Assembly (NCBI GenBank): GCA_035293105.1
Contig: DATDOV010000079.1
Location: forward strand, 101,574 to 165,573
DNA from: Blastocatellia bacterium
GTDB taxonomy: Bacteria; Acidobacteriota; Blastocatellia; UBA7656
Direction of reading: 5' to 3'
Length of the DNA: 64,000 nucleotides
How positions within the stretch are numbered: the first letter of the stretch is position 1; every line of letters begins with the position of its first letter. Shown here piece by piece: positions 26,246 through 44,213 of this stretch. The position numbers and the translations under genes are program-made. Under the pieces are notes generated by a model. That model was not told the origin of the DNA, searched no databases, and saw only the letters and a list, made by a program, of their open reading frames with translations.

Positions 26246-26294
26246 CGGAGGACCATTCCGAGAGGCTCGTGGCGGCGACGTTGCCGACATCCTT

Positions 26295-27907: not shown

Positions 27908-27930
27908 CTTTGGCTCTGTGAGGAGATGTC

Positions 27931-28192: not shown

Positions 28193-28196
28193 ACCA

Positions 28197-28874: not shown

Positions 28875-28917
28875 GGAAGCTGGCCGCATGTCCTCAGCGG
28901 TGTATAATGAGCGAGCT

Positions 28918-29256: not shown

Positions 29257-29286
29257 CGCGCGAGTCCGGCTACGCTTCGTGGCCTT

Positions 29287-29625
29287 CTGTTTGACGAAAA
29301 CTTCAATCATAGAATCGTACATGGGTTGCAATTGCGCCTGCCGGGTCTCGATTTCGTGATTGCTCAGGAAATAGAACTGAAGGGCGCCAAAGACCCGGAG
29401 TTGTTGGAGTGGGCCGCGACGCAGAACCGGGTCGTCGTCACGCATGACGTCGACACATTGTTGAAGTTCGCATACGAACGCATAGTTGGCGGCCAACTGA
29501 TGCCGGGCGTGATAGCCGTCCCACAGATCCTCCCGATAGGGCAAGCGATAGACGATCTGGCAACCGCCATCGAGTGCTCGGAGGCAAGCGATTTGGAGAA
29601 CTCAGTCTTGCACCTGCCTTTGTAA
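29287..29625 (+). CDS. DUF5615 (PIN-like) protein; start codon uncertain or non-canonical
   Basis: In-frame LLFDENFNHRIVHGLQLRLPGLDFVIAQE... begins right after the DUF433 stop. No ATG/GTG upstream; CTG at 29287 or TTG at 29326. Confidence 0.5.
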   Translation: MFDENFNHRIVHGLQLRLPGLDFVIAQEIELKGAKDPELLEWAATQNRVVVTHDVDTLLKFAYERIVGGQLMPGVIAVPQILPIGQAIDDLATAIECSEASDLENSVLHLPL

Positions 29626-29669
29626 CTGAAAGACGCGGGGACTGACTCGGGGCCGGCCTTGGATAAGAT

Positions 29670-29921
29670 ATGAAATACGAACTGTTCACCCGAGTCGCGC
29701 TGAATACCGATCTGCCGCGATACGGACTCCGCAGCGGGGACGTGGCAACGGTCATCGAGCACCATCCCGGACGGCCAGGCCAAGAGCCCGGCTACAGCCT
29801 TGAAGTGTCTAACGCGGTCGGGGAAACGGTCGCCGTGGTCACCGTCCGCGAGTCTCAGATCGTGCCGCTCAATGCCAACGAACCTTTGCATGTCCGCCTG
29901 CTGGCGGAAACGTCCCGCTGA
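29670..29921 (+). CDS. DUF4926 protein
   Basis: MKYELFTRVALNTDLPRYGLRSGDVATVIEHHP... 83 aa. Confidence 0.55.
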   Translation: MKYELFTRVALNTDLPRYGLRSGDVATVIEHHPGRPGQEPGYSLEVSNAVGETVAVVTVRESQIVPLNANEPLHVRLLAETSR

Positions 29922-29977
29922 TCGCTACCCGACGCGAATAGAACAGATGGACCGCGCCCGTCGGGGATCTGTTTAGG

Positions 29978-30382
29978 ATGCCGAGCTCCACGATAAATCT
30001 GGGAACGTTTCGAGTGGGCTCGCCTCGCAAGCGGGGCGAGGGCTTGCGAGTCGGCACAGTGCGCTTTCTGCCGCGCGGAGTGAAGAAAGAAGACTACGCG
30101 CGACTGGACTACTTCGACGTCTGGTTTCCGCTGCTGGCCCCAAGCTCGGAGTTGCTCCGATGGATGAAGAGCCGCGAGTGGCCAACCGAGCAAGTCAGGT
30201 GGTCGAAGTTCAGAGAGCGCTACACTGCCGAGATGAACAAGACCGCCGCCCGCCAGGCGATCAAGCTTCTGGCAGAGTTAGCCAGAGCGACGCCGTTGAG
30301 CATAGGGTGCTACTGCGAGACCGAGTCAGCCTGTCATCGCTCGATACTGCGTGAGTTGATTGAAAACGCGGCAGGCGAGTAG
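29978..30382 (+). CDS. DUF488 / YeaO-family protein (copy 2 of 3)
   Basis: About 90% nt identity to 28482-28874 over the whole gene. Confidence 0.75.
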   Translation: MPSSTINLGTFRVGSPRKRGEGLRVGTVRFLPRGVKKEDYARLDYFDVWFPLLAPSSELLRWMKSREWPTEQVRWSKFRERYTAEMNKTAARQAIKLLAELARATPLSIGCYCETESACHRSILRELIENAAGE

Positions 30383-30452
30383 GAGGGCTAGCCGTGCCGA
30401 TGAAGTCGCGGTTCAAGCGATGATATATCTGGACCATAACGAAGCAACTCGA

Positions 30453-30896
30453 TCATTTCACGTCGGCCGGAGAGACGGCAGTGATTCCTGGATAGCGCTT
30501 GAAGTCGGCTACGTTGAATGTAAGCAGATGCGTGATGCCATACACATTCATCGAAGCGACAAGCTTGGCATCGTGAACCTCAACGCCCATCACCGAGTGA
30601 GTTACAACAAGCCGCCGCCATTCCTGGAAGGTCGCTAGACTGTCCGGGAGCAAACGAAAGTAGCGTTCAATCAGACGCGCTTTTCGTTCTGTTTGAGTCA
30701 ATGAAAGGCTGAGCCCGCCGCGCGCCGAAGCCGGACGAGTACCGACGTTCCAGAACTCGCTCAGGACCTGTGGAGTGAAACAAAGAACTTCATTTCGCGA
30801 GCGGAGCCTTCGCAGAGCATCAAGAGCCATTTGGCGCTGCGGATCGTTGCGGTGGGCCAGCCGGAGAAACAGATTCGTATCGAAAAGATAGGCCAT
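30453..30896 (-). CDS. vapC: PIN-domain toxin (VapC-like)
   Basis: MAYLFDTNLFLRLAHRNDP... acidic PIN residues (D5, E, D, N/D). Confidence 0.75.
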   Translation of the reverse strand: MAYLFDTNLFLRLAHRNDPQRQMALDALRRLRSRNEVLCFTPQVLSEFWNVGTRPASARGGLSLSLTQTERKARLIERYFRLLPDSLATFQEWRRLVVTHSVMGVEVHDAKLVASMNVYGITHLLTFNVADFKRYPGITAVSPADVK

Positions 30897-31159
30897 CAGT
30901 CGTGGTCGAAGTAGATGTCGGCGCGCGAATAGCTCCCGGAGTAAGCTGGCAGATGCTCCGTTCCTTCGGCAAACGCTTGCATGTCCGCTTCAAACTCAGC
31001 GTCGTTCGCGGGAGCGGGCGCTGATAATTCATCAACTGATCGGGTTGCGCTGGCTTGCACAAGGCTCTCGACAAAGGACTTCACATCCAGGCCATACGCC
31101 TTAGCCCTTTGTTCCAAAATGTGTCTCACGTCTTCGGGAACTGAAATCGTTAATTCCAT
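30896..31159 (-). CDS. VapB-like antitoxin
   Basis: 87-aa ORF whose stop overlaps the vapC start. MELTISVPEDVRHILEQRAKAYGLDVKSFVESLV. Confidence 0.55.
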   Translation of the reverse strand: MELTISVPEDVRHILEQRAKAYGLDVKSFVESLVQASATRSVDELSAPAPANDAEFEADMQAFAEGTEHLPAYSGSYSRADIYFDHD

Positions 31160-31398
31160 TCGCGACTCTCTATCCGTTTCTCGATCCAGATTCCAAGTCC
31201 ACGTCTGTATCTATGAGTAGCGCATTGCTGTCGCGCCAGGATCTCCTTACTCATACAACGCGCCTCTTAGATTGGCAGCAGTATAGCACTCCGGTGACTA
31301 GCTGATAAGAGAGTACGATCAGACGCGTGCGCGTCACGATTTTGCGCGAGAAGGGAGGGACTGCTTGACCGTCGCAAAAAGTGCGTCACCCCAGAGTA

Positions 31399-31588
31399 TC
31401 TCATTAACACCTCACTTCAGTGAGGTGCCCTCGACCGAGCGGATCCCCCAACCGTTTCAACGGTTTCCTCTCTCGCAGTCGTCTTTCAAACTCGAAGTCT
31501 TCGGATTCCATGAGCGCAAACCGTTAAAACGGTTCAGGGGATCCGCCGAGCCAAGAGCACCTCACTGAAGTGAGGTGTTAATGAGAAC
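31399..31588. mobile_element. ~190-bp near-perfect palindromic MITE-like element
   Basis: Left end tctcattaacacctcacttcagtgaggtg and right end cacctcactgaagtgaggtgttaatgaga are reverse complements. Each end is itself a hairpin. Inner nested inverted repeats (gatcccccaaccgtttcaacggtt / aaccgttaaaacggttcaggggatcc). Confidence 0.6.
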
Positions 31589-31733
31589 CGATGTTCCCGC
31601 GAGCCTTGACGTCCCAGTTTTGATCACATCCCCAAACCGTGACGCGCACCCCGATCAGACGGCTCGGCCACGCAACCAAGTAGATGTTCGTAGTACCGGC
31701 TTCAGATGAAATCATGGCCTTGGCGTCGGCATA

Positions 31734-32048
31734 GTGCGCTTTCTGCCGCGCGGAGTGAAGAAAGAAGACTACGCGCGACTGGACTACTTCGACGTCTGGT
31801 TTCCGCTGCTGGCCCCAAGCGCTGAGTTGCTCACTTGGCTGAAGAGCCGCGAGTGGCCGAGCGAGCAAGTCAGATGGTCGAAGTTCAAAGAGCGCTACGT
31901 TGCCGAGATGAACAAGACCGACGCGCGGCAGGCTATCAAGCTTCTGGCCGAGTTAGCCAGAGCTACTCCGTTGAGCATAGGGTGTTACTGCGAGAACGAG
32001 TCAGCCTGTCATCGCTCTATGCTGCGTGAGTTGATCGAAGAGCCCTGA
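31734..32048 (+). pseudogene. DUF488 / YeaO-family protein (copy 3), 5'-truncated
   Basis: Homology to copies 1 and 2 starts at codon ~25 (RFLPRGVKKEDYARLDYFDVWFPLL...). First ~25 codons are replaced by unrelated sequence next to the palindromic element. Confidence 0.6.
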
Positions 32049-32136
32049 AGCTTTAGTGGGTCGTAGGATTGGTCCGACGCTTTCGCGATAATCTGCGATT
32101 TGAAGCAATCGAAAACTTGGGATAGGCTTACGTCCC

Positions 32137-33057
32137 ATGAAAAGCCTTGGTTCAGCCGGCAGCCTACCTTTGTTTGATGAATCTGCAGACGGCAACCCTC
32201 TTGAACATCAATCCGAGAAGCCCGAAAAGACTTCGCCCTTTAGCGACCTTGATCTGAATCGCTGGCGCGAATATGAAGACATCGTTACCGACTCGCTGTG
32301 GCTCATACCAGAACGGGACCGGACTGGCGCGCATCTCGCGGACTATCACGGAAACTTTGTTCCTCAAATCCCCTATCAGGCGATGCGGCGGTTTACGAAA
32401 CGCGGAGATGTTGTGCTCGACGCATTCTTGGGTTCCGGCACGACCCTCATCGAATGTCGCAGACTAGGGCGACACGGAATCGGCGTTGAGCTTAAGCCAG
32501 AGCTTGCAAAGCAAGCAGCCGACCGTATCGCGAGCCAAGGCAATCGCTACCAGGTCAAGACAGAGGTGCTGACGTCAGATAGTTGTGATCCCGTAAAGAC
32601 TCCTGGAGTCATTTCGCAGAGTCTTGAAACCATCGGCAAGGATTCAGTGCAGCTTGCAATACTTCATCCTCCGTATCATTCAATAATTAGGTTCTCTGAT
32701 CGTGCGGATGATCTGTCTAATTGCCCTACGGTTGACGTGTTTCAAAAAACGTTTGGCCGAGCGGTTGATGTAGTGACTCCATTCCTCGACATAGGCCGCT
32801 ATCTGGTCTTGGTCATCGGTGATATGTATGCTGGCAGCGAATGGATTCCTCTTGGATTTCGGTGCATGAACGAGATAATGGAGCGCGGGTACACTCTGAA
32901 GAGCATCGTCGTTAAAGATATGCAAGGAAATCGGGCTAAACGAAATCTGGAGAACATCTGGCGCTATCGCGCGCTAGTCGGCGGCTTCTACATCTTCAAG
33001 CACGAGTACGTCATGTTTTTCAGGAAGGGCAGAACGAATGGCCGAACTGCCATTTAG
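32137..33057 (+). CDS. N6-adenine or N4-cytosine DNA methyltransferase (R-M)
   Basis: Motif I VVLDAFLGSGTT; motif IV LHPPY (D/N/S-PP-Y variant). Confidence 0.8.
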   Translation: MKSLGSAGSLPLFDESADGNPLEHQSEKPEKTSPFSDLDLNRWREYEDIVTDSLWLIPERDRTGAHLADYHGNFVPQIPYQAMRRFTKRGDVVLDAFLGSGTTLIECRRLGRHGIGVELKPELAKQAADRIASQGNRYQVKTEVLTSDSCDPVKTPGVISQSLETIGKDSVQLAILHPPYHSIIRFSDRADDLSNCPTVDVFQKTFGRAVDVVTPFLDIGRYLVLVIGDMYAGSEWIPLGFRCMNEIMERGYTLKSIVVKDMQGNRAKRNLENIWRYRALVGGFYIFKHEYVMFFRKGRTNGRTAI

Positions 33058-33685
33058 TCAAGGCTCAAAGCTCCGTCAGACCTTTCAAATCCTCGCAGAT
33101 GGTAACTGGCATTGCGGCAAACATGAGTTGCCAGGAACGCAGCCTGCGAAGGCGATTCAGATCATCAGGCAGACCGGATACGAAGTAGAGAACAGGACGC
33201 AGCATTGCAATCGTTGCGACGAACGGACTGTCCACCGACGACTCGTTTCGACCAGCCCGTCGGCGAGCTCAGTGGCCCGGTCGGCGTTGCCGGAAAAGCT
33301 CAAGGGGCGTGTGAAGACGCTGTTCAAGAACATCGAGGCCATCACACAAAGAACCTACGAACCGAATCAGCTGGAGGTGGACCACCGTTTTCCGCAAGTA
33401 AGGTGGTCGAGCCCGGAGGCGATGAATGATCCGAACATGTCGGATGCTGATATCACTGCAAAGTTCCAGCTCCTTACACGGCAGCACAATCTATGGAAGA
33501 GTCGGTATTGTGAGGCATGTTTGAAAACTGGGCGTCGTGGGACCTATATCGGGATTGAGTACTTCTACGAAGGCGGCTTGATGTGGCCAGAGGACATTCA
33601 TCCAGACGACGAACGCGGCTGCATTGGTTGCTTTTGGTATGACCCTGAGAAATGGCGCCAGAGCCTGAACCAGCTTGTAAGCTAA
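33038..33685 (+). CDS. putative type II restriction endonuclease partner
   Basis: Overlaps MTase 3' end by 20 nt. Cys-rich (CGKH...CNRCDE...CEAC...CIGC) with an EVDHRFP HNH-like element. Confidence 0.45.
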   Translation: MAELPFSQGSKLRQTFQILADGNWHCGKHELPGTQPAKAIQIIRQTGYEVENRTQHCNRCDERTVHRRLVSTSPSASSVARSALPEKLKGRVKTLFKNIEAITQRTYEPNQLEVDHRFPQVRWSSPEAMNDPNMSDADITAKFQLLTRQHNLWKSRYCEACLKTGRRGTYIGIEYFYEGGLMWPEDIHPDDERGCIGCFWYDPEKWRQSLNQLVS

Positions 33686-33727
33686 CCTGCGCGGCCATCG
33701 GTGAAAGAGTACGAAACCCAAACCTGG

Positions 33728-34510
33728 TTATCCGAGGTCGCCGGGACGTACAGTCACTATAGTGAGAACGCGGTTGTAGTATGGCAATAGTATGGAGTCT
33801 TCCCACACCTTCCCAAAAACGTGTCCGGCTAGCCATGCCTCTGCACGTACGGCTCCGTCTTGCTCGCGCTCTTCCGTCGGGCGGAAGAGGTTGCTCGCGA
33901 GGGACTCGACGCTGACTTCAGTACCTTTGCGCTTGATGTAATGCTGGAATTGAGGGCCGGGTCTCCACCATTCAATTATCCCGCTGTCACTAACCACCAA
34001 AGCGCATTGTTCCTCAGTGACGTCGACGCACTTGACAGTAGCTGCGGTTAGCGAGGTCTGAAATTTCGCACTTATCTTTTTCGCGACCACCACGGTTGCT
34101 GACTCTTGTCGAACGATAGTGGCTGCTTGTGCCGATGGAATTAGCAATTCTGACGCGAACCGATTCGCGTCAATCTCGTGTTCTGGTGCGCCGCGGCTCC
34201 ACGATTCGACGTCGCGACTCTTACAAACGCAATCTAGCTCTCCGTGCCCCGGTAGAATGTAATGGCCGAGTTCGTGAGCGATCGTGAATCTCTTCCGGCC
34301 AGGCTCACGTATGGTCGCCTTAACAGCGACGATACCTGTCGGTTTGTTAGGAATACGAACCAACGCGCCTTCGAAACCCTCTGACTCGACCTCGCAAATC
34401 TCCAACCCGATTCTGTCCGCAAGCTCAGATAGATCGGGCGTCGTCGATATCTTGAATCGCCTTAAGAGCGCGCGAGCGAAGTCTTCAGGTTGTGCTGGTG
34501 TCCGATTCAC
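33728..34510 (-). CDS. ImmA/IrrE-family metallo-endopeptidase (COG2856, CapP-like)
   Basis: HEXXH (IAHELGHYIL) followed by EIDANRFASELLIP, the family signature E-x-N-x-F-A-x-x-L-L. Confidence 0.75.
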   Translation of the reverse strand: MNRTPAQPEDFARALLRRFKISTTPDLSELADRIGLEICEVESEGFEGALVRIPNKPTGIVAVKATIREPGRKRFTIAHELGHYILPGHGELDCVCKSRDVESWSRGAPEHEIDANRFASELLIPSAQAATIVRQESATVVVAKKISAKFQTSLTAATVKCVDVTEEQCALVVSDSGIIEWWRPGPQFQHYIKRKGTEVSVESLASNLFRPTEEREQDGAVRAEAWLAGHVFGKVWEDSILLPYYNRVLTIVTVRPGDLG

Positions 34511-34959
34511 TCTGACCCCGTATCGCCCTCGTCAAGCTTGCTTTTCAGCGAATCGAGGATTTCTTTGTCCTTGGAGGAGACCTTCTCGCCAAGCTTACGA
34601 CCGCGTAGCGAGGATACGGCCTCAGCGCCGGCAGAGGGCAGAGTCCCGCTCAACAGGTTAGCTAAGTAGCAGTCGGGGTCAACACCAGCAGACTCCGACT
34701 TCTTCTCTTCTGCACGCCGCAGATTCCTCAGAGCGTTCTCCACTGGGACCGGCACACTTTTGCTTTTCGACCTGAGTTCACGCACTCCAGCTTCGACTCT
34801 TGACATCAGCTTGGAAACCAGATCAGATGAATCAACACCACAAGCCTTAAGCACATCCTTGGCAGTTTCAAGATCAATCTCTTCGTCAGGCCCTAGTAAC
34901 GCCTCGAAGAGTTCATCTTCTTCGGTCTTTGGAAGTGGCTGGGTTCTTTTGTTAGGCAT
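34507..34959 (-). CDS. acidic low-complexity protein (candidate anti-sigma / peptidase substrate)
   Basis: 150 aa, highly charged. Translationally coupled on both sides: 14-nt gap to the upstream gene, 4-nt overlap with ImmA. Confidence 0.4.
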   Translation of the reverse strand: MPNKRTQPLPKTEEDELFEALLGPDEEIDLETAKDVLKACGVDSSDLVSKLMSRVEAGVRELRSKSKSVPVPVENALRNLRRAEEKKSESAGVDPDCYLANLLSGTLPSAGAEAVSSLRGRKLGEKVSSKDKEILDSLKSKLDEGDTGSE

Positions 34960-34973
34960 ACGCGGCCACCTTT

Positions 34974-35561
34974 CTAGTTACCCTTCTGCCGATACTTCAT
35001 CGATCCGGCACGGCGCCAGCCGGTAAGTCTCGTTCTCACTCTCCGCTGGCGGCCCCTCAGTTGCTGAGCGGTTATACCGAGGAACTCTGCAATTTCCTTT
35101 GGCTTTGCTGGCCACAACTCCAGAACCGCCTCAACATAATCCTCCAGTTCTTTCTCCCCTTTTACAAGAGCGTAGATTCTCGCCTTTGTGAGGGCATCGT
35201 GCTCAGCGTTCCCAAGGTCGTCCTCAAAGGCGTCGATTACCCTGAGAGCCTTCTCATGCTTTAGCGAGTCCAGAACGGTACTCCTCTTATACCCGCTGTG
35301 TTTCGTCACTATGTCCAGGAAATCACGCGTCATGACAGTCAGGAGCAACGGATATGGGTCTTCATCGTGTGTCTTGGGCCGCCATTCTACGCCTCTTTGG
35401 AATATGAAGGCTTCAACTGTCTCAACAGCAAAGTCTTCAGCGGATTTCCCAGACCCCGGTAGAACTGATAGCCCTTGACGGACGAATAGCCCTTCGGCAG
35501 CGGCATACAACCGACTTAGCAGGCCTTCCAGATCGACATTCGCGAAGCGTGAATCGTCCAT
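34974..35561 (-). CDS. divergent sigma-70-family (ECF-like) protein
   Basis: Region-2-like SAEDFAVETVEAFIFQR...DPYPLLLTVMTRDFLDIV and region-4-like HTH EIAEFLGITAQQLRGRQRRVRTRL. Confidence 0.45.
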   Translation of the reverse strand: MDDSRFANVDLEGLLSRLYAAAEGLFVRQGLSVLPGSGKSAEDFAVETVEAFIFQRGVEWRPKTHDEDPYPLLLTVMTRDFLDIVTKHSGYKRSTVLDSLKHEKALRVIDAFEDDLGNAEHDALTKARIYALVKGEKELEDYVEAVLELWPAKPKEIAEFLGITAQQLRGRQRRVRTRLTGWRRAGSMKYRQKGN

Positions 35562-35820
35562 TCCGGGACCTCTTCATTCTTAAAGCGAGTCAGGGTCTAG
35601 GAACTGGCAAGAAATCTGTCATCAAGAAATTTTTCTGCCAGTTTTAGCCGACACAGTCGCTTAGACAGTGGAGGTTGGCACCGGCCGATTAGCCGTCATC
35701 TAACAAGAGGCATGCTAACCCACGGAAAGGGCTAAGAGGAAGATCAACCAGACACGGACGATCTGCTTGGACGATCTGCTTGGCCACGACAGCAACCGAA
35801 CCTGAAGGGAGTTATCAACA
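35562..35820. promoter_or_regulatory. divergent control region between sigma/ImmA operon and Ubl operon
   Basis: Inverted repeat AACTGGCAAGAAAT-N13-ATTTTTCTGCCAGTT. GGAACT -35-like element. Tandem 14-mer gacgatctgcttgg x2. Confidence 0.45.
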
Positions 35821-36852
35821 ATGAGCAACAAAACCGATTCAACGGCTGTTGACGATCTCGTCGACGGCCAGTGGCTTGAAGATATCGATGCGGCGCTGCC
35901 TCAGGCGGTCGCCGAGGCCACAGTAGATGGACGGCTGCCCGCGAAAGCTCAACACCTGAAAGTTCAGGTTGGGTTTCGCGAATTGCCGGACGGGCACGAG
36001 GTCAAGTTCAAGGCCTCACTTACGAATACACTGCTGGAAGTGTTCGAATGGGCAGCGCAGGAACTCGGGAAACCTCTACTACCTCCCGCCAGCAACCAGC
36101 CGCTCGATCTATTGCGCTGTCGGGAGCGACACGGCGACGGCTGGAGCGAGCCTATCACAGGCCTCGACCGGCCGCTCTGGCTCGTGTTGGTTGAAAGCTG
36201 CTCTCGACATTTCGGAATCGAATATGTGCTGGCTGTTAAGATCAACACGAAGTGGGCCGTAGCACCGTCCGCAAAAATGACGCCGCGCGAGCTGCTCACT
36301 AGCTTTGGGTTTGATCCCTCTCAATTCAGCCTGTACAAGCCCGATAGCACGGAGCCGCTGCCGGCGGACACGCCGATCCCTCTTCATCGAGGAGAGAGGT
36401 TTGAAGCGCAGAAGGACGGGAAGTATGGAGCGTCGGTGATGGCAGAGCGTCCGGCGCGCGGCTCACAGACGATCGACGATGATCTGGAAGGAATAAGGGA
36501 GGCGGGTATCGACGCCCGCCTCCTCGACTCCAACGGACAAAAGTACGCCGAGGTGAAGGGAATAGCGGTACCGTCGCCTCCTTGGTCTCTGGACAGGCTC
36601 ACACTGCTGTTCGCTATTCCGGCTACGTACCCGACAGGCGGGCTCGACGCGTTCTACATCGAGTTGCCCGTTAGCCACGCTAGCGGTTCCGTTCCGTACC
36701 AATCTCAGACCGCGCAGATCGATGGCAGATCGTGGGGGCTGATCTCATGGCACTATCCGACCGGGCGGCCCTGGAACCCGTCGCATGACGATCTTTCTAC
36801 TCATATCGAGCATTGTCGTGGAGCATTGATGAGGCGTGGGGTGACGCAGTGA
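35821..36852 (+). CDS. multi-ubiquitin (tandem beta-grasp) domains fused to prokaryotic E2-like (UBC-fold) domain
   Basis: Two Ub-like repeats (HLKVQVGFRELPDGHEVKFKASLTNTLLEVFEWAAQELG; LAVKINTKWAVAPSAKMTPRELLTSFGFDPSQFSLYKPDS...IPLHRGERFEA). C-terminal E2-like region (...LLFAIPATYPTGGLDAFYIELPV...ISWHYPTGRPWNPSHDDL...). Confidence 0.55.
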   Translation: MSNKTDSTAVDDLVDGQWLEDIDAALPQAVAEATVDGRLPAKAQHLKVQVGFRELPDGHEVKFKASLTNTLLEVFEWAAQELGKPLLPPASNQPLDLLRCRERHGDGWSEPITGLDRPLWLVLVESCSRHFGIEYVLAVKINTKWAVAPSAKMTPRELLTSFGFDPSQFSLYKPDSTEPLPADTPIPLHRGERFEAQKDGKYGASVMAERPARGSQTIDDDLEGIREAGIDARLLDSNGQKYAEVKGIAVPSPPWSLDRLTLLFAIPATYPTGGLDAFYIELPVSHASGSVPYQSQTAQIDGRSWGLISWHYPTGRPWNPSHDDLSTHIEHCRGALMRRGVTQ

Positions 36853-36854
36853 AA

Positions 36855-38246
36855 ATGCGAATGACCGAACACCACTACCATGAGGTAAAGCGACTTACGT
36901 CTCCTTCCTTCTTGGATGGCATCCGGTTTCCTCCCGAGACAGGTTGCATCGTTTTAGTCGGGCGGAATAATCATCCAACGTATCCGTCAGTCGTAGTGGC
37001 CGATGTGCTGGCGCCCGAGGACGGAGAGTTGATTGAGCGAGAGAGTGATGGTCTCGTCTTCGCGAGCAAGTATTTGCGGCGCGCTCTGTTTCGATTGCGT
37101 GAGAAAGGGCTGGCGGGCTTCCTCACAGTCCACACCCACCCGTTCTCGGACACGCGTGTGAACTTTTCTCCCTATGATGACGCGAATGATCCCTCGCTGA
37201 TGGCAAATCTGTACGAGCTTGAGCCCCACGGCATTTTCGGCAGCATCGTGATGGGCAAAAGATCGGCGAGAGCTCGATTGTGGAATCCGGACGGAGATGG
37301 CTACCGCACACTCGAACCGATGATCATCGTCGGTGAGCGACTGCAATTCTTCAACGCTAATGGTGCCGAGGCCGAGGCGGAACCACAGGCAGCGGAGATC
37401 TTCGACCGCGGCTTGTCGATCACAGGTAGCGGCGCGTTAGCGCGACTCGCCTGCATGCGTGTTGGTCTGATCGGCAGCAGCGGAACCGGCTCTATTATGG
37501 CCGAATTGCTGATGCGCGCCGGTGTTGGCGAGATACTGCTTTTTGAGCCTGACTATGTGGAAGAACCCAACCTGAACCGGATGCTCCATTCCCGGCAGCG
37601 CGACGCGGAAGCTCGTGTAGGAAAGGCGTCCCGGCTGGCTGAAGCTCTTGCCGAGGCTGGTATGCCCACTCAGATCACGGTCGCCTCGGGCGGTGACATA
37701 CGCCGCGAGGAGGTAGCACTTGAGCTACGAGGTTGCGATTTGGTGATTGGTTGTGTTGATCGAGACTGGCCGCGCCTAATACTTTGCGAACTAGCTTATC
37801 AATACTTGATTCCGTACATAGACCTGGGAACAGAGATCGGTTTCGATGGGATTGAGATTCAGAGCCTCGATTCTCGCGTTTCGTATGTTGCGCCTGGTCG
37901 TCCTTGTCTTCTGTGTTCTGGCGTGGTGTCAACCGAGCGCCTTAGGCTGGAAGCACTAGAAGACAGCGAGCGAGACAGAGTTATCGCAATGGGTTACTCG
38001 GAAGACATTAGGCTCATCGCGCCTGCGGTCATGGATCTAAACATGCGCGCTGCCTCTTATGCGATGCTCGTTGTACGTCATCTCCTCCAGCCGTTCCTCG
38101 ATAGGCCGCTGCCGACTCATATCAAAGAATCAATCACTAACTTCAGTGTTCGACGAGTGACCAGTACCCAGAATTCGGACTGTCACGTCTGTGATGGTTC
38201 GAGGCTTGGAGTCGGAGACGCGCGCCGTTTGTCCACGGCTCGTTGA
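36855..38246 (+). CDS. JAB/MPN metalloprotease domain fused to E1-like ThiF/MoeB adenylyltransferase
   Basis: N-terminal JAMM-like motif LAGFLTVHTHPFSD...S..D. C-terminal Rossmann GLIGSSGTGSIMAELLMRAGVGEILLFEPDYVEEPNLNRM with CLLCSG and CHVCDG zinc pairs. Start immediately after the upstream stop. Confidence 0.7.
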   Translation: MRMTEHHYHEVKRLTSPSFLDGIRFPPETGCIVLVGRNNHPTYPSVVVADVLAPEDGELIERESDGLVFASKYLRRALFRLREKGLAGFLTVHTHPFSDTRVNFSPYDDANDPSLMANLYELEPHGIFGSIVMGKRSARARLWNPDGDGYRTLEPMIIVGERLQFFNANGAEAEAEPQAAEIFDRGLSITGSGALARLACMRVGLIGSSGTGSIMAELLMRAGVGEILLFEPDYVEEPNLNRMLHSRQRDAEARVGKASRLAEALAEAGMPTQITVASGGDIRREEVALELRGCDLVIGCVDRDWPRLILCELAYQYLIPYIDLGTEIGFDGIEIQSLDSRVSYVAPGRPCLLCSGVVSTERLRLEALEDSERDRVIAMGYSEDIRLIAPAVMDLNMRAASYAMLVVRHLLQPFLDRPLPTHIKESITNFSVRRVTSTQNSDCHVCDGSRLGVGDARRLSTAR

Positions 38247-38719
38247 TCGTTCTGACTGACTGGAACGCCAATCTTGGGCACGCAGACACGCCGCCGCCAT
38301 ACCCTTTGATCATCCTAATCCAGAACCCAGACGCCGCTTTCGCGAATTGCATCGTACATCGCGTCTGGTGCAAGATCACCACCGTTCGGCCACTGCACCA
38401 CACCCATAACCACTCGCGCTCCGGCAAATACGGCGGCTCGCGTAGCGGCTCGAACACTGTGCCGTCGATCTCAGAGCTGCTGAGAAACGCTCGCATATCT
38501 ACGTTCCCCGGCGTGCCATCGCCGAATCTTACGTGCAATTCCGGGAACGCAAAGACGCGAGAATCTCTAAGATCGCCAAGTGTGCTACCGCTTCAGTCCG
38601 TCACTAGAGGCTCGCGGCGGATTGTTCAGACATAGCCTACAACCAGAGAGACATCTCTCTTCGATTCGCGCTTCTATTCCTACCTTTGTGTTACAATCTC
38701 GCGAAAGGAGCGGAGCCAA

Positions 38720-38953
38720 ATCATTTCCGAGCAAGCCGAGAAAATCCTCGAACAGGCTTTGCAGTTGCCTTCCTCGCAACGCGCAGACCTGGTCGAGCGT
38801 TTGTTGGACAGTCTTGCGTTCGAAACTGACGAACGCATCGATGCGCTGTGGGCTGCCGAGGCCGAGAGTCGCATAGCTGCTTTTCGCCGGGGCGAGTTGT
38901 CGGCGGTACCGTCAGAAGACGTCTTTGCTGAGATCGAAGCGGAGGCTAATTGA
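38720..38953 (+). CDS. addiction-module antitoxin; probable non-ATG (ATC/ATT) start
   Basis: IISEQAEKILEQALQLPSSQRADLVERLLDSLAFETDERIDALWAAE... AAGGAG sits 9 nt upstream of ATC at 38720. First canonical start is an internal TTG at 38759. Confidence 0.5.
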   Translation: MISEQAEKILEQALQLPSSQRADLVERLLDSLAFETDERIDALWAAEAESRIAAFRRGELSAVPSEDVFAEIEAEAN

Positions 38954-39240
38954 AGGTTCAATTCCTCGAACCGGCCAAAGCCGAGTTGAAGGAAGCAGTC
39001 CGCTACTACAACCACCAGAGAGAAGGTCTCGGGCTCGAATTCGCCGCTGAAGTCAGAAAGGCAACTCAGCGAATCGCGAAGCTGCCGAAGGCCTCGCCAC
39101 CAATCTCAGGTGGCGCTAGAAGGTTTCTTCTTCGCAGGTTCCCTTACGGAATCATTTTATCTGGTCGAAGACAAAACGGTGCTTATTGTTGCTGTAATGC
39201 ATCTAGCGCGCGATCCTGTAGTCTGGCAGGAACGGCTGAA
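38950..39240 (+). pseudogene. RelE/ParE-family toxin with +1 frameshift
   Basis: KVQFLEPAKAELKEAVRYYNHQ...RRFLLRRFPYGI, then the conserved tail IYLVEDKTVLIVAVMHLARDPVVWQERLK is in another frame (shift at a T-run near 39160). Confidence 0.6.
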
Positions 39241-39412
39241 GTGACTCGATTATCGTGGCTAGGCTCCGCACCCGCCTCACGATCGAGCTTCCAGTCAAGG
39301 CTAGCGCTCAAAGGCACGGTCGTGGGCCGACTGCTTTGGTTCATGTGGTTCGTCCAACTCCGTGTAGCCACACAGAGCCGAGTCGAGTATACTCGCCAGC
39401 AAGGAGTAGGTC

Positions 39413-39664
39413 ATGACAACGATGTTTCCCATACCTCCGCCGGGGTTTGACCAGCTTTCAGTAGACGAGCAGATCCACTTCGTCGAGTCGCTGTGGGACC
39501 GAATCGCAGTGCATGCCGAACGGGTGCCGGTTCCCGACTGGCATCGCCACGTGCTCGCCGAAAGACTCGCCGCGTATGAGAGCGATCCCGACGCAGGTAA
39601 GCCGTGGGAGGAGGTCCGGGACGAACTCCAGCGAGAACTCCGAGACATTGATCGCCGGAAATGA
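39413..39664 (+). CDS. addiction-module antitoxin
   Basis: MTTMFPIPPPGFDQLSVDEQIHFVESLWDRIAV...DWHRHVLAERLAAYESDP. Confidence 0.6.
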   Translation: MTTMFPIPPPGFDQLSVDEQIHFVESLWDRIAVHAERVPVPDWHRHVLAERLAAYESDPDAGKPWEEVRDELQRELRDIDRRK

Positions 39665-39946
39665 CCAAACAGCGCGTGATCATCCGGCCCGAGGCGCAGC
39701 AGGACCTCCGCGAGGCGGCGCTGTGGTATGAGACTCCCAGGCCGGGCCTCGGAGAGCGTTTCGCAACCAAGATCGAGGGGTTGATCGAGCGAATAGCCGA
39801 CAAAGCCTCGCCAATTCCCTGAGATCGCCCACGGAGTCCGCCGGGCTTGGCTACAGGCATTTCCGTATTCGGTTTACTTCGTCGAATCTCCCGGCACCGT
39901 TTCGCTCATCGCCATTCTTCACCAGCATCGCCACCCCGATACCTGA
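39661..39946 (+). pseudogene. RelE/ParE-family toxin with frameshift
   Basis: MTKQRVIIRPEAQQDLREAALWYE... stops after ...ASPIP. Conserved tail QFPEIAHGVRRAWLQAFPYSVYFVESPGTVSLIAILHQHRHP continues in another frame. Confidence 0.55.
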
Positions 39947-40074
39947 AGCAAATAGACGATCATTATTCACTGGTTGAAACTGGTTGATTATCCACTGACC
40001 CTGGCAGATAATCCGCCACTTGACCGGTGCATGAGAAGCTAGAGGCAGACCGACGTTGCTCTAAACTAGGGGAT

Positions 40075-41088
40075 ATGGAAAACGAACCGCTGGGGCATTC
40101 TGAGATCATCCTCTACCAAACCGAGGACAAGCGTACTCGGATCGAGGTCAGGCTTGAGGACGAGACTGTCTGGCTCAGTCAAAGCCAGATGGCCGAGTTG
40201 TTCCAGACCACCAAACAAAACATCAGCCTCCACGTTAGGAACATCTTCGCTGAGCACGAATTGCAGGAGGACCAAGTTGTCAAGGAATACTTGACGACTG
40301 CAGCCGACGGCAAGAAATACGCAACCGGCCACTACAACCTCGATGTCATCATCTCCGTAGGTTATCGCGTCAAGTCCCACCGCGGCACTCAGTTCCGCAT
40401 CTGGGCGACTCAACGCCTGAGGGAGTACCTGATCAAAGGCTTCGCGCTGGACGATGAGCGGCTCAAAGAAGGCGGCACGAAGAACACTTACTTCGATGAA
40501 CTGCTGGCCCGGATCAGGGACATCCGCGCCTCCGAGAAGAACTTCTACCGCAAGGTCCTGGACATCTACGCGACAAGCATCGACTACGACCTACACTCGG
40601 ATGTCTCTTACGACTTCTTTGCGATCGTTCAAAACAAGATGCACTGGGCGGCGCACGGCCACACCGCAGCCGAGTTGATCGCCGAACGGGCCGACGCCGA
40701 TAAGCCCAATATGGGATTAACCTCCTGGAAAGACCCGAAGGTGCGAAAGTCGGACGTGACCGTCGCAAAGAACTACCTCAACGCCGACGAGATCGAAATC
40801 CTGAATCTGATCGTGAGTCAGTACCTGGACTTCGCCGAGCTTCAGGCCAGAATGAAGAAGGCGATGTACATGCGCGACTGGGTGCGCAAGCTGGACGATT
40901 TTCTGAGAGTGAATGAGCGGGAAATATTGAAGGACGCAGGTAAGATCTCGCATCAGCTTGCTCAGCAGTTGGCCGAAGCTGAGTACGACAAGTTCGAAAA
41001 GAAGCGGTTGGCGGCGGAATCCGAAGCCCCTAACAAGGACTTCGAGGAAGCGGTGAAGACACTCACCTCGCGAAAGCGGAAGAGGTAG
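40075..41088 (+). CDS. RhuM-family (Fic/DOC-related) virulence/defence-associated protein
   Basis: MENEPLGHSEIILYQTEDKRTRIEVRLEDETVWLSQSQMAELFQTTKQNISLHVRNIF... characteristic RhuM N-terminus. Confidence 0.8.
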   Translation: MENEPLGHSEIILYQTEDKRTRIEVRLEDETVWLSQSQMAELFQTTKQNISLHVRNIFAEHELQEDQVVKEYLTTAADGKKYATGHYNLDVIISVGYRVKSHRGTQFRIWATQRLREYLIKGFALDDERLKEGGTKNTYFDELLARIRDIRASEKNFYRKVLDIYATSIDYDLHSDVSYDFFAIVQNKMHWAAHGHTAAELIAERADADKPNMGLTSWKDPKVRKSDVTVAKNYLNADEIEILNLIVSQYLDFAELQARMKKAMYMRDWVRKLDDFLRVNEREILKDAGKISHQLAQQLAEAEYDKFEKKRLAAESEAPNKDFEEAVKTLTSRKRKR

Positions 41089-41384
41089 GCGACACACGCA
41101 CCGATCCGTGCGGCTGCCGGAGTTTGCTGTGAGCTCGCGTGCGGCTGTTTGTTGTCCAATCACTGGTCGCGTCCCGGTCGAGACTGCAACAAGAATGGAT
41201 AGAATTGCGATTGCCCCGGCGCGTCGATGAATTCTGACCGCGCTCGATGTCTTACGCAAAGTTGCGGTTGTTGCGCCAGCCATTCCCGGCCTCCTTAGGT
41301 GGCTACCCTGCCACACTATACACGGACGCAAAACCGGGGCATTTCAATGCATATTCTTTTCGAATCGTACGCGAGAGGGCTTAG

Positions 41385-41717
41385 TTATGAAGTCAAACCG
41401 CGAGGACTCATAGTAGTCCTCGATAGTCTCGTGCGCCGTGAATGATCCGATGAACGAAGATCGTTTGCTCCTCGCAAGTGTAAAAAGATCAGGTAATCCT
41501 GAACGACCAAATAGCGATAACCGAGATCAACCAGCGACGCATCACCAGATACGCGTCCCAGGTATGGGTTCAACGCCAACAGCCTCAGGTTCTTCTCGAT
41601 TCTCTGCGCAAGTGCTTCGGCGGCTTCCGGTCTTTGAGCCGCAATGTAGGTGACGATCTCAGTGAAGTCGTCCTCCGCTGCCCTCAAGAGCCGGACCGTG
41701 TGCTTACGCCGCTTCAC
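41385..41717 (-). pseudogene. RelE/ParE-family toxin with frameshift at a T5 run
   Basis: ...LGYRYLVVQDYLIF then the frame drifts. The +1 frame gives the canonical YTCEEQTIFVHRIIHGARDY tail. Confidence 0.6.
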
Positions 41718-41976
41718 GGATTCTCTTTCGCAGATCTTTCATCACTTGTGAGACCGTCCGGCCTCGGTCGCCACATGCTCGCTGAGCTTGCGCCACCGCT
41801 AGCTTGCTGAAGAGTTCGACTTTGAGTTGAAGCTTGCTGTAATGAGCCATCGACATAACAACCATGTCGCCCTCACCGTTCCTCGTGATGAAGATCGGCT
41901 CATCGATAGTCTCGGCTAGATCAGAGATCTGGTTCGCTTTGTTCCGCAAGTCGGAAATGGGTTTTATGACGGGCAT
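41704..41976 (-). CDS. Phd/YefM-family antitoxin
   Basis: MPVIKPISDLRNKANQISDLAETIDEPIFITRNGEGDMVVMSMAHYSKL. Confidence 0.7.
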   Translation of the reverse strand: MPVIKPISDLRNKANQISDLAETIDEPIFITRNGEGDMVVMSMAHYSKLQLKVELFSKLAVAQAQRACGDRGRTVSQVMKDLRKRIREAA

Positions 41977-42045
41977 CTTCAATCTCCTTCTACCGCGCTG
42001 CAAAATTATATCACTTAAAGATAAAGGAAAGGGGCCAAGGCGATT

Positions 42046-43554
42046 TTATAGATACTCGCGTTCGGCCTTGCGAATCTTCCGGAAGCGCTCAAACGCTGCG
42101 CGCTCGTCCTCAAGCCCAATAAACGTCTTCAGCGTCGAGCCCCGGAACGTGTGCGCGAACATCCTCCCCGCGTTCCTTAACACAAACAGCGGATCGTGAG
42201 CGAAAGCGGCCGGCATGTGATGAAGCTTCATCCACCGCTCTTCCTTCCATCGCATGAATTCCGCTTCTTCGGCTGAGACGTGCTCGGTCCTGACCACGGC
42301 GGTCGTGCCGTCGTACTCCTGGAGGTTCTCGTTGATGATCAAGCCGCGGTCGCGGAAGTCCTTCGTCATCGGCGTGCGTGGATAAGGCGTCGGGTGCTGT
42401 ATGTAAGGCCAGTCGATGTAGCGGCGGGCGAAATCCAGATTAGCCGTGATCGACTCGCGCGTGTCGTCGGGGTTGCCTACGATCAAGCCGCCTACGACGT
42501 ACATCTTGTTGCGATGCAGGTAGTCGATTGCTTTCATGGTCGCGTTGCCCGCCCGCCCCCCATCGCCATTGCCGCGGGCGAGGTTCTTCGATTTGGCTTT
42601 CAGGAATTGCAGATCGTCTTCGAGGATGTTCTCGATGCCCAGAAACACGTAACGGAATCCGGCACGGCGCATCAGCGGCGCGAGCGTCTCCCCATGATTG
42701 GCTATCGCCGAGGTCATCCCCTGCACGAAATAGTCGAGATCGTTCAGGCCCGCGTCGATGATCGCCTGGCAGAGCGCTTCGAACCGCCGCACGTTGAGCG
42801 TGATGTTGTCGTCGACGATGAAGATCGTGCGCGCGCCGTGATCACGAGCGTCTCGAATGTCGGCCAGCACGCGGTCGAACGAGTAAGTGAAGAAGTTGCG
42901 GCCGCGCATCTCGATTATCGAGCAGAAGCTGCAATCGAACGTGCAGCCGCGCGAGGTTTCGATAACATCGACCTGTCTCCCAAGCAGCGTGTAGCCTGTG
43001 AGCACGCGTGCGCTGCGGTTTTGCAGCTTGATCTCGCCGTTGTCGAGCCCGTTCACGCCGCGGTCGGGGTTGTGATAGAAGCGGTCGCCGCTCCGGTACG
43101 ATAAGCCGGGAATATGATCGAAGCCGCTCTCGTTTTCGATCGCCTGCAGCAGTTCGCGGAACGTGATCTCGCCTTCGCCGCGCACGATGAAGTCCACCAC
43201 GCCCGAGGAATTGTCGGCGTAGGCTTCGATATCGAGGCTCGGGTCGTAGCCGCCTACGGCGACTCGCACCGATGGACGAAGCCGGCGGACGAGATCGATT
43301 GCCTTCTTTGCCGTTTTGCGCTGGAAGCTCATCACTGACAGGCCGACGACATCGGGTTCCATCTCACGCACCAATCGCTCGACGGTCGCTCGCACGTGTC
43401 GTTGGACCAGCACGAGATCGGCGACCGAGACCTTGTGATGTGAATCGACGTTGCCAGCGAGCGACGTGAGCGCGCCATTAGGCATTCTGATGGCGAGCGA
43501 TGGCATGTGCTCGAATGAATCGGGCATCGAGAGGAGCAGAATGTTCAATGGCAC
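42046..43554 (-). CDS. B12-binding domain radical SAM protein
   Basis: N-terminal B12-binding Rossmann-like region. CTFDCSFC (CxxxCxxC) radical SAM cluster motif. Confidence 0.8.
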   Translation of the reverse strand: MPLNILLLSMPDSFEHMPSLAIRMPNGALTSLAGNVDSHHKVSVADLVLVQRHVRATVERLVREMEPDVVGLSVMSFQRKTAKKAIDLVRRLRPSVRVAVGGYDPSLDIEAYADNSSGVVDFIVRGEGEITFRELLQAIENESGFDHIPGLSYRSGDRFYHNPDRGVNGLDNGEIKLQNRSARVLTGYTLLGRQVDVIETSRGCTFDCSFCSIIEMRGRNFFTYSFDRVLADIRDARDHGARTIFIVDDNITLNVRRFEALCQAIIDAGLNDLDYFVQGMTSAIANHGETLAPLMRRAGFRYVFLGIENILEDDLQFLKAKSKNLARGNGDGGRAGNATMKAIDYLHRNKMYVVGGLIVGNPDDTRESITANLDFARRYIDWPYIQHPTPYPRTPMTKDFRDRGLIINENLQEYDGTTAVVRTEHVSAEEAEFMRWKEERWMKLHHMPAAFAHDPLFVLRNAGRMFAHTFRGSTLKTFIGLEDERAAFERFRKIRKAEREYL

Positions 43555-43724
43555 CTCCTTCCGTGGGGCCGTCCCCGCTTGAAAGCGAATCGCGATGCAA
43601 AGCGCGTCGATGTTAGTTCAAGAATACTCGCCAGGCAAGCAGCAGAGCGATCGGCGCGATCGGCGATCGGTCTACCGGACTCGGCCGAGCCGAGTCGGAT
43701 GCGAGACCGACCGAGAGTTCCCTC

Positions 43725-43756
43725 TTGACATTGAAGTTGGGTACAGGGTGTAGCAT
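43725..43756 (+). promoter_or_regulatory. MerR-type promoter (TTGACA, 20-bp spacer, TAGCAT)
   Basis: TTGACA at 43725-30 and TAGCAT at 43751-56 with an over-long 20-bp spacer containing GGGTACAGGG, immediately upstream of the merR-like gene. Confidence 0.5.
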
Positions 43757-43778
43757 CTTATTGCGGAAGGACCTGCGG

Positions 43779-44213
43779 ATGAATGCAATGACCATCGGCG
43801 AGCTGGCCAGGCGCGGCGGGGTTAACCCGGAAACCATACGTTACTACGAACGTGAAGGGTTGCTGCCAAAGCCGCGCCGCCTGCCGTCGGGTTATCGCGT
43901 CTTCTCTCGGGATGACGCGCGGCGCGTGCGCTTCATCAAGCAAGCGCAGGAGCTGGGCTTCTCGCTCAAGGAGATCAAGGAACTGCTCGCCTTGCGCATC
44001 CATCCGGGTACGACTTGCGCCGACGTGCGGGAGCGTACGACAGCCAAGATTGCCGACATTGACGAAAGGCTGCGTCGGCTTCGCGCCATGAAAAAGGCCC
44101 TGGTGCGACTGACTGCGGCTTGCTCCGGACAGGGGGTAGTGAGTGACTGCCCGATATTGGAGAGCCTTGATTCGGAAAAGGAGCGTTGTGGTGAAGAAGA
44201 AACGCAAGATTGA
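43779..44213 (+). CDS. merR: MerR-family metal-responsive regulator with Hg-MerR-like Cys triad
   Basis: HTH MTIGELARRGGVNPETIRYYEREGLL. Cys at positions 80, 115 and 124 (spacing 35/9, as in Tn501 MerR C82/C117/C126). Confidence 0.7.
   Translation: MNAMTIGELARRGGVNPETIRYYEREGLLPKPRRLPSGYRVFSRDDARRVRFIKQAQELGFSLKEIKELLALRIHPGTTCADVRERTTAKIADIDERLRRLRAMKKALVRLTAACSGQGVVSDCPILESLDSEKERCGEEETQD

Follow-up and report, generated by a model that had tools for sequence, protein, structure and literature searches.

How can a ubiquitin-like protein be handed to its target by an activating enzyme (E1) and a conjugating enzyme (E2) if neither enzyme has an obvious catalytic cysteine? This question is raised by two adjacent genes in a 64-kb stretch of DNA from a Blastocatellia bacterium (contig DATDOV010000079.1; hereafter the window). 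The first gene (35821..36852, plus strand) encodes a protein of 343 amino acids in which ubiquitin-like (Ubl) domains precede an E2 domain with a ubiquitin-conjugating (UBC)-like fold. The second (36849..38246, plus strand) encodes a JAB peptidase fused to a ThiF-type E1. A preliminary description, made from the letters alone, had left two explanations for the missing cysteine, namely a non-canonical cysteine in the E2 or a different mode of conjugation. Most probably, the locus encodes a Bub-type (bacterial ubiquitination-like, "6E") protein-conjugation module, which would rely on tyrosine and serine chemistry and not on cysteine thioesters.

Operon type "6e" goes back to Iyer, Burroughs and Aravind (2006; PMC1779556) and consists of a polyUbl, a UBC-fold protein devoid of the cysteine, and a JAB-E1 fusion. 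An sll6052-type metal-binding protein, now named DUF6527, is listed among its components, and the E2 was predicted to be inactive. The 6e operons were renamed Bub by Ye, Gong, Chambers and Corbett (PMC11601596, a bioRxiv preprint of 2024 that PMC13373217 cites as Ye et al. 2026). Type I Bub (6E.1), found for example in Citrobacter sp. RHBSTW-00271 (PDB 9EA4, 9EAE, 9EAV), comprises BubAB (Ubl-E2), BubCD (JAB-E1) and BubE (DUF6527). E1 and E2 both lack a catalytic cysteine; the Ubl is carried as a Ubl~Tyr oxyester on the E1 and as a Ubl~Ser oxyester on the E2 (PMC11601596). Specifically, Y370 in the crossover loop of the E1 and S333 and H335 of the E2, together with D299, are required for conjugation in vitro and in Escherichia coli cells (PMC11601596). 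The Bub proteins of Citrobacter and E. coli form ATP-dependent conjugates in vitro, and those of Citrobacter also do so in cells, while the JAB domain of BubCD cuts BubAB directly after the conserved glycine G229 (PMC11601596). BubE, a protease with Ser and His at its active site, probably takes conjugates apart (PMC11601596), and according to the literature it is encoded by all Bub operons. The fused-domain arrangement of the window is therefore not new, having been described both as operon type 6e in 2006 and as Type I Bub in 2024. The missing cysteine is a genuine puzzle, which the demonstration in 2024 that Bub runs on Tyr/Ser oxyesters has solved. As the literature already explains the missing cysteines, the finding is less surprising than at first.

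The sequence of protein 1 is present at NCBI in identical form as "E2/UBC family protein [Blastocatellia bacterium]". Among Pfam families, Prok-E2_E (PF14462) alone matches it (residues 220-336, E=3.4e-11), and searches of PADLOC and NCBIfam gave no match. Homology searches found 163 homologues; 47 homologues at 46-78% identity were aligned and used to build an AlphaFold2 (AF2) model with a mean predicted local distance difference test (pLDDT) score of 85.5. The model consists of helices at residues 6-45, beta-grasp domains at approximately 47-134 and 138-197, a disordered segment at 201-208, and an alpha/beta UBC-like domain at 218-337. In the DNA, the two tandem beta-grasp domains correspond to 35956..36429 (residues ~46-203), ending with FEAQKDGKYG203, whose last glycine codon occupies 36427-36429; the BubB-like E2 domain corresponds to 36472..36849 (residues 218-343). 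The top Foldseek match in the PDB is BubB of Citrobacter (9eae_C; E=9.8e-8, target-normalised TM score 0.76, root-mean-square deviation 2.2 Å over 118 columns). It is followed by the bacterial multi-ubiquitin proteins 8u38, 9d5b and 9cd2, and then by di- and poly-ubiquitin, ISG15, FAT10 and the Ubl domains of USP7. The two beta-grasp repeats and the UBC-like region proposed in the preliminary description are thus found by the AF2 model, Foldseek and Prok-E2_E; the claim survives the structure prediction, which contains both folds.

The putative active site of the E2 domain is formed by D276 (36646-36648), S309 (36745-36747) and H311 (36751-36753). When the domain is compared with Citrobacter BubB by phmmer (E=0.0046), D276 pairs with D299 (LDAFY versus LDMFY) and S309 with S333. 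The pairing of H311 with H335 is read from the Ser-x-His motif (ISWH versus WSRH), as a gap of four residues follows the serine in the HMMER alignment; a MAFFT alignment with seven canonical BubB proteins from plasmids agrees. All three residues are invariant in the 47 homologues and in 23 genomic loci. With the E2 domain as query, 163 of 1.84 billion cluster representatives were matched at E<=0.001, and in the 149 that were aligned the three columns hold Asp (137/149), Ser (129/149) and His (132/149), respectively; the D-S-H triad is kept in about 95% of these representatives. Two distant representatives, P0353 (...LCWQP) and P0362 (...FCWQP), carry a cysteine exactly at the S309 column, with Cys-x-Gln in place of Ser-x-His. 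This exchange identifies the S309 column as the site of catalysis in this fold. The two sequences may be Cys-type relatives or reversions, and they would be useful for tracing the switch from cysteine to serine.

The start of protein 2 deserves attention before its residues are numbered. The longest mechanical open reading frame (ORF), 36813-38246, begins with TTG and encodes 477 amino acids. Its 335 homologues cover just 97% of this frame, and the protein is therefore taken to be 463-465 amino acids long, probably starting at GTG 36849 or ATG 36855. The junction of the genes reads ...CAG TGA AAA TGC..., so that GTG 36849 overlaps the upstream stop codon TGA (36850-36852) as GTGA, with the ATG following at 36855. 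Translation of protein 2 is probably coupled to that of protein 1. Residues of protein 2 are counted here from ATG 36855.

A phmmer search of protein 2 against all PDB sequences identified Citrobacter BubCD (9ea4, 9ea5, 9eav) with E=4.8e-37. The match extends over ORF residues 66-432 and so takes in the JAMM motif and the adenylation domain in full; the next PDB matches (TcdA, UBA5, Uba4 and MoeB) reach 1e-8 or worse. In Pfam, ThiF is matched with E=2.9e-18 and Prok-JAB with E=0.006 for the whole protein, or 9e-4 for the N-terminal part alone. PADLOC assigns weak E1-E2 matches of the type found in the cyclic oligonucleotide-based antiphage signalling system (CBASS), confined to the Rossmann part (residues 206-330), and the NCBIfam ThiF/MoeB models score 25-55 bits against cut-offs of 150-650 bits. 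The JAMM/JAB metallopeptidase domain (36855..37349) includes E28 (36936), H93-x-H95 (37131-37139), S105 (37167) and D108 (37176). The E1 adenylation domain (37407..38243) was delimited by Pfam ThiF and by a column-by-column alignment with BubCD of Citrobacter and six other canonical BubCD proteins. It contains the GSSGTGS loop (37473-37493), R242 (37578), D302 (37758), the crossover-loop tyrosine Y381 (37995-37997), and a zinc Cys4 site composed of C351/C354 (37905-37916) and C443/C446 (38181-38192). The motifs HTHPFSD...FSPYD, GSSGTGS, CLLC and CHVC are all present at verified coordinates. In 38 homologues, E28, H93, H95, S105, D108, G207, S209, G210, G212, R242 (in NLNR), D302 and the four zinc cysteines are invariant; the JAMM residues and R242 are likewise invariant in 23/23 genomic relatives. 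The preliminary reading of a JAMM-like motif, a ThiF fold and two CxxC pairs on one polypeptide is accordingly correct. H93, H95 and D108 align with H91, H93 and D104 of Citrobacter BubCD, and the seven canonical plasmid BubCD proteins carry the JAMM residues and R242, save for E28, which falls into an alignment gap of the Mesorhizobium sequence.

For the comparison of the crossover loop, residues 54-409 of Citrobacter BubCD were rebuilt from HMMER output, in which H91, H93, D104 and R227 lie at chain index +2. With this offset, Citrobacter Y370 (chain index 372, "ERGYITG") aligns with Y381 of the window protein ("AMGYSED"). Y381 is invariant in 38/38 homologues, 23/23 genomic relatives and 7/7 canonical BubCD proteins. 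Another tyrosine, Y344 (SRVSYVAPG), was considered as the equivalent of Y370 and rejected, being Tyr in only 33/38 homologues and displaced by the offset that places Y370 at Y381. The idea that this E1 uses a serine instead of a tyrosine was dropped once Y381 had been recognised. The sole cysteines near the crossover loop are those of the zinc CxxC pair at its start. The Cys4 site is present in BubCD of Rhizobium, Nostoc, Synechocystis and Rhodococcus and absent from that of Citrobacter, Mesorhizobium and Pontibacter; as several canonical BubCD proteins have it, it is not specific to this clade. The pair shares homology, fold and every catalytic residue with Bub; with hundreds of homologues and invariant motif residues, the resemblance goes far beyond chance.

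The junction between Ubl and E2 is where a Bub precursor is cut. In the alignment of 47 sequences, an invariant block FEAQKDGxYG ends at G203 and is followed by a linker of variable length and sequence and then by the E2 domain; E195, A196, Q197, D199, G200, Y202 and G203 are the same in 47/47 sequences, and G203 is also kept in 23 genomic loci. G203, which lies in the linker predicted to be disordered, is the predicted C-terminus of the mature Ubl and the predicted cleavage site of the JAB domain. When one genome per GTDB species was scanned, 28 related loci came to light, belonging to Acidobacteriota, Planctomycetota, Trueperaceae, Chloroflexota and further groups. A single gene encodes Ubl and E2 together in 12 loci, mostly of Acidobacteriota and including the window, three of which are near-identical copies of the window's own locus. 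In 16 loci, where BubCD is ~41-48% identical, they are encoded by separate adjacent genes. There, the Ubl ORFs end with ...EAQ[RK]DG[KR]YG, 2-11 extra residues and a stop codon. Canonical split BubA proteins of Rhizobium, Nostoc and Synechocystis end exactly at ...TTTEG*. The existence of natural fusions beside separate genes, and the short tails of the separately encoded Ubls, are independent evidence for processing at the conserved glycine and for G203 as the mature C-terminus. The sequences indicate that this clade would always make a precursor requiring the JAB domain. A different split operon (Ubl, E2 and JAB-E1) occurs on the Rhodococcus aetherivorans plasmid pRaL13f (locus L040, 2255-4254). 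No BubE is detected in it with a hidden Markov model (HMM), its E2 has Ser-Arg-Arg without a histidine at the active site, and a HigA/RelE pair upstream takes the place of CapH/CapP.

By analogy with the Citrobacter experiments, from which the chemistry, cleavage and regulation of the window proteins are inferred, the following sequence of events can be proposed. The JAB domain of protein 2 would cut the 343-amino-acid precursor just past G203, releasing a two-domain Ubl with a free C-terminal glycine and a separate E2. The E1, probably a homodimer, would then adenylate G203 using ATP, and the Ubl would move onto the hydroxyl group of Y381 in the crossover loop. From there it would pass to S309 of the E2 as a second oxyester, assisted by H311 and D276, and finally to lysines of the target. 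Without the serine protease BubE, deconjugation might be performed by the JAB domain or might not take place. The preliminary description had called the JAB domain a deconjugating peptidase. The peptidase domain is confirmed, but what has so far been shown for such a domain in Bub is maturation of the Ubl-E2 precursor, not deconjugation. DNA damage or infection probably induces the operon via a divergently encoded CapP-like protease, partnered by a sigma-like protein and a 150-amino-acid protein; cleavage of the latter by CapP would set the sigma-like activator free.

Several observations weigh against the assignment to Bub. BubE (DUF6527/PF20137), present in every published Bub operon, was not found in the window or in the related loci examined. 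No ORF downstream of the protein 2 gene matches DUF6527 in Pfam, and no DUF6527 gene was seen in the neighbourhoods at 100%, 76% and 48% identity. All-against-all clustering of the ORFs of 31 loci produced no conserved downstream family, only Bub genes, antisense shadow ORFs and upstream regulators; of the 73 families matched by 69 downstream ORFs, the 25 with the most matches do not include DUF6527. A crude regular expression for the BubE motif CxCxC...S...C..H likewise found nothing and was superseded by an HMM with a positive control. This HMM was built from five annotated DUF6527 proteins of plasmid operons and run on stop-to-stop six-frame translations. It recovers an unannotated BubE in a Mesorhizobium locus (L036) with E=3.8e-33 and nothing in the 64-kb window or in loci L001-L033 (best E ~3), the search covering the loci only, so that an unlinked copy elsewhere in the genome is possible. 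In loci L041-L046, which contain the same cassette as the window, no third gene was seen. The operon set in the literature was drawn from DUF6527-containing operons, and the clade therefore probably lies outside that set.

The further points against the assignment concern the proteins themselves and the function of Bub. Pfam Multi_ubiq (PF14452) matches neither the Ubl region of the window nor a Ubl of the split clade, even at E<=10, whereas canonical BubAB of C. braakii, used as a control, scores 7.6e-23. Prok-E2_E scores 43 bits on protein 1 compared with 113 bits on the canonical protein. Judging from the model, the Ubl domains have the beta-grasp fold despite the missing Multi_ubiq match. 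Identity to the characterised proteins is low, with ~31% for BubCD and an E2 match that reaches only the above E=0.0046 by sequence. Neither the cysteine C332 nor the histidine H328 of the E2 domain varies among the 47 close homologues or within the sister clade with split genes. Finally, protection against phages by Bub had not been demonstrated in the literature as of 2026.

C332 is the starting point of one rival explanation, according to which the E2 forms a non-canonical cysteine thioester on this residue (in HCRGAL) and not an oxyester on S309. The cysteines of protein 1 are exactly C100, C127 and C332, the three that the preliminary description had named by their contexts CSRHFG, RCRERHG and HCRGAL, and C332 (36814-36816) is the only one in the E2 domain. 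It is a clade-specific conserved cysteine in a clade that also lacks BubE, and it is found in none of the seven aligned canonical BubB proteins, which speaks in favour of a special role. Against this, six canonical BubB proteins with a Ser-x-His site have Ala or Val at this column, and over the 149 representatives it is occupied by V (42), C (40), I (25), A (10), M (3) and L (2). Such a mixture is the signature of a buried helix position and not of a nucleophile. In the AF2 model, C332 lies in the middle of helix 325-337, 23 residues past the active-site loop, and the D276/S309/H311 triad, which is essential in Citrobacter, is fully kept. C332 is thus probably a buried core residue, a catalytic role is unlikely, and a thioester in place of the S309 oxyester is very improbable. 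Consequently, one half of the alternative posed at the outset is disfavoured by the variability of column 332, whereas conjugation by other means is favoured by the invariant Tyr and Ser residues. As the active-site position has no cysteine, the E2-like domain could also be an inactive, RWD-like ubiquitin-binding module without any part in protein conjugation, as predicted for type 6e in 2006. The Bub systems of Citrobacter and E. coli, however, conjugate in an ATP-dependent manner via the very Ser/His and Tyr residues that are invariant here, and the adenylation and JAMM sites are intact, which makes this view very unlikely.

The lack of BubE invites the suspicion that the locus is a decaying, non-functional remnant of Type I Bub from which bubE was lost, and the frameshifted DUF2442 pseudogene and disrupted toxin-antitoxin genes directly downstream fit such a history. 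Yet BubE is missing in all 28 species-representative loci and in all metagenomic loci examined. Moreover, hundreds of homologues at 48-91% identity have kept both ORFs unbroken and their catalytic residues unchanged, and the five-gene cassette described below is found again beside other flanking genes, so that decay is a highly unlikely explanation. Even more remote is a sulphur-carrier system of the ThiS/MoaD-ThiF/MoeB type serving the synthesis of a cofactor or thio-metabolite. A MoeB-like Cys4 zinc site, the terminal glycine of the Ubl and the NCBIfam ThiF/MoeB matches, all weak and far under the cut-offs, are compatible with it. However, no rhodanese, cysteine desulfurase or biosynthetic gene lies nearby, E2 and JAB domains are present, the setting is a mobile defence island with a CapP regulator, and the nearest solved relative is BubCD and not ThiF. 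The Bub-type module with Tyr/Ser chemistry therefore remains the preferred interpretation.

Upstream of the Bub pair, a divergent operon on the minus strand ends with the gene of a CapP-like metallopeptidase (33728..34510, 260 amino acids; ImmA/IrrE type, Pfam Peptidase_M78). It matches the PADLOC capP profile with E=1.6e-55 over profile positions 4-240 of 242 and has its HELGH motif at residue 79. The first gene of this group (34974..35561, minus strand) encodes a protein of 195 amino acids resembling sigma factors of the extracytoplasmic function (ECF) class. Weak Pfam matches to Sigma70_r4, r4_2 and ECF occur in up to 5/14 members of its family, and its homologues are named 'sigma24 family' by JGI. 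The AF2 model is poor (pLDDT 61); its top Foldseek matches are nearly all ECF sigma factors, none of them significant, and comparing a profile of the family with PDB sequences was of no help. The protein is thus a putative sigma factor only. Between these two genes, 34507..34959 (minus strand) encodes the 150-amino-acid protein without a recognisable domain, for which Pfam, PADLOC and NCBIfam returned no match and no helix-turn-helix (HTH) was found. It is co-conserved with both neighbours in loci L008, L009 and L041-L046 and might be a substrate of CapP or an anti-sigma factor.

CapH and CapP adjoin 31% of 544 Bub operons (PMC11601596). Among the loci related to the window, a CapP-like gene lies upstream in 22/31; its partner is usually an XRE-type HTH protein, CapH, and one locus (L015) has a CapH-CapP fusion. 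The 195- and 150-amino-acid proteins stand in for CapH in the window and in the loci nearest to it (L008, L009, L041-L046). The trio of sigma-like, 150-amino-acid and CapP proteins forms a five-gene cassette with the Bub pair, and the genes that flank this cassette differ from locus to locus. On a Pontibacter plasmid (L037), a trio of the same sizes and order lies 5' of a BubE-containing operon, where the counterpart of the 195-amino-acid protein is matched with E~0.08 and that of the 150-amino-acid protein with E 0.26. The arrangement in Mesorhizobium (L036) is similar; the 195-amino-acid counterpart has E~0.03, the 150-amino-acid protein has no match, and the third gene is annotated as hypothetical only. 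The divergent promoter region contains a 13-nt inverted repeat, AACTGGCAAGAAA / TTTTCTGCCAGTT (35602..35643), which is kept in the three other aligned cassettes with the sigma-like gene and absent from the regulator-less locus L004. Its possible roles are those of an operator or of a promoter component. No sigma-70 consensus promoter is found in the divergent intergenic region. A sigma-E-type promoter, GGAACT-N16-TCAAGA, is not claimed, as its spacing and -10 element vary among relatives. In the leader 5' of the first Bub gene, a 13-nt unit (GGACGATCTGCTT) is perfectly duplicated in tandem (35756-35781); related cassettes have a stretch of single-copy length.

The Bub pair lies in a stretch (approximately 26000-44000) with a G+C content of 0.53-0.60, compared with ~0.62 in the flanks. 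A Type II restriction-modification (R-M) system, RhuM, three DUF488 paralogues and several toxin-antitoxin genes are also located there. The stretch thus looks like a horizontally acquired defence or mobile island; no tRNA gene is found in the 64-kb window. The R-M pair (32137-33685, plus strand), composed of an N6/N4 methyltransferase (PADLOC MTase_II, 5e-103) and a restriction enzyme (REase_II, 4e-39), directly adjoins the CapP gene. On the other side, a cluster of toxin-antitoxin and related genes spans 38759-42003. It consists of two Unstab_antitox genes (38759-38953 and 39413-39664), a 166-amino-acid ORF with only a weak N-terminal ParE match that is possibly disrupted (38950-39450), RhuM (40027-41088), and a ParE/Phd pair on the minus strand (41385-42003). 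The ORFs directly 3' of the E1 gene (38243-38635, plus strand; 38143-38538, minus strand) have no Pfam match. A third operon gene at these positions was rejected, as the minus strand carries a frameshifted DUF2442 remnant there (38354-38580), seen as two tblastn pieces in different frames against an intact DUF2442 gene at ~28197-28481.

The locus mainly confirms that the residues that define Bub chemistry are conserved far beyond Proteobacteria, in soil Acidobacteriota and Planctomycetota. What it adds is modest: the BubE-less clade, precursors that are fused in some loci and split in others, and the CapP module with a sigma-like protein. A large clade without BubE bears on the purpose of this enzyme, which has been proposed to reverse Bub conjugation, and on deconjugation by JAB domains. 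If true, the combination of CapP with a sigma-like protein would be a different wiring of a DNA-damage signal to a defence operon. Tractable variants of Bub may also help to find its biological role.

Compared with other bacterial systems, the pair does not belong to the ThiF/MoeB equivalogs, given scores under the cut-offs and no biosynthetic neighbours. Bil (BilABCD) and Cap2/Cap3 of Type II CBASS share the logic of Ubl, E1, E2 and JAB in bacterial defence islands, but operate with catalytic cysteines and thioesters. Bil is furthermore encoded by separate genes and its E1 has two adenylation domains, whereas the window E1 has one and no catalytic cysteine. CBASS has no Ubl; its Cap2, in which E2 and E1 are fused, conjugates the CD-NTase, and its JAB peptidase (Cap3) is a separate protein. 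No CD-NTase or effector gene lies near the pair. Type II Bub (6E.2; BubA, BubBD and BubE) belongs to the same branch of the E2/E1 superfamily and shares the Ser/Tyr oxyester chemistry. It differs by fusing the E2 to the E1, normally without a JAB domain, by the use of Ser, Lys and His in the E2, and by the presence of BubE. This E2-E1 fusion without JAB is not seen in the window, where the fusion partner of the E2 is the Ubl and that of the E1 is the JAB domain. The regulatory part resembles CapH+CapP in having a full-length CapP-like metallopeptidase, divergent and upstream, and most relatives in the clade keep an ordinary HTH CapH. In the window and its closest relatives, in contrast, the HTH partner is replaced by the 195-amino-acid sigma-like protein and the 150-amino-acid protein without HTH. 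Lau et al. (2022 preprint, 10.1101/2022.04.27.489752) reported 24 CBASS systems with capH+capP and a sigma factor of the sigma70 family; capH+capP with a sigma factor is thus mentioned there, but not the arrangement found here.

The 6e operons of PMC1779556 agree with the pair in their polyUbl, Cys-less UBC-fold protein and JAB-E1 fusion, as well as in their sporadic, mobile distribution, whereas Acidobacteriota and Planctomycetota are absent from the taxa listed there. The closest likeness is that to Type I Bub. Shared features are the order of a Ubl-E2 fusion and a JAB-E1 fusion, the conserved glycine at the Ubl/E2 junction, Asp/Ser/His in the E2, the crossover-loop tyrosine of an E1 without catalytic cysteine, intact JAMM and adenylation residues, and CapP-type regulators and mobile or defence islands nearby. 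The window locus differs in the lack of BubE/DUF6527 and in its Ubl, which is not seen by Multi_ubiq, ends with ...DGKYG instead of ...(E/N)G, and has an N-terminal helical extension. In addition, the E1 has the Cys4 zinc site that Citrobacter BubCD does not have, and H328 and C332 in the E2 helix are clade-specific relative to canonical BubB. The pair is clearly homologous to Type I Bub and would work like it. As BubE and a Ubl of the Multi_ubiq type were searched for and not found, it is not filed under Type I as defined and is best called a BubE-less sister variant. Whether the clade of Acidobacteriota and Planctomycetota should be ranked higher is evenly balanced; it could represent a third, BubE-independent type of Bub, with a divergent two-domain Ubl precursor that is either fused to the E2 or short-tailed, a JAB domain performing all proteolysis, and, in a sub-branch, a sigma/anti-sigma switch controlled by CapP.

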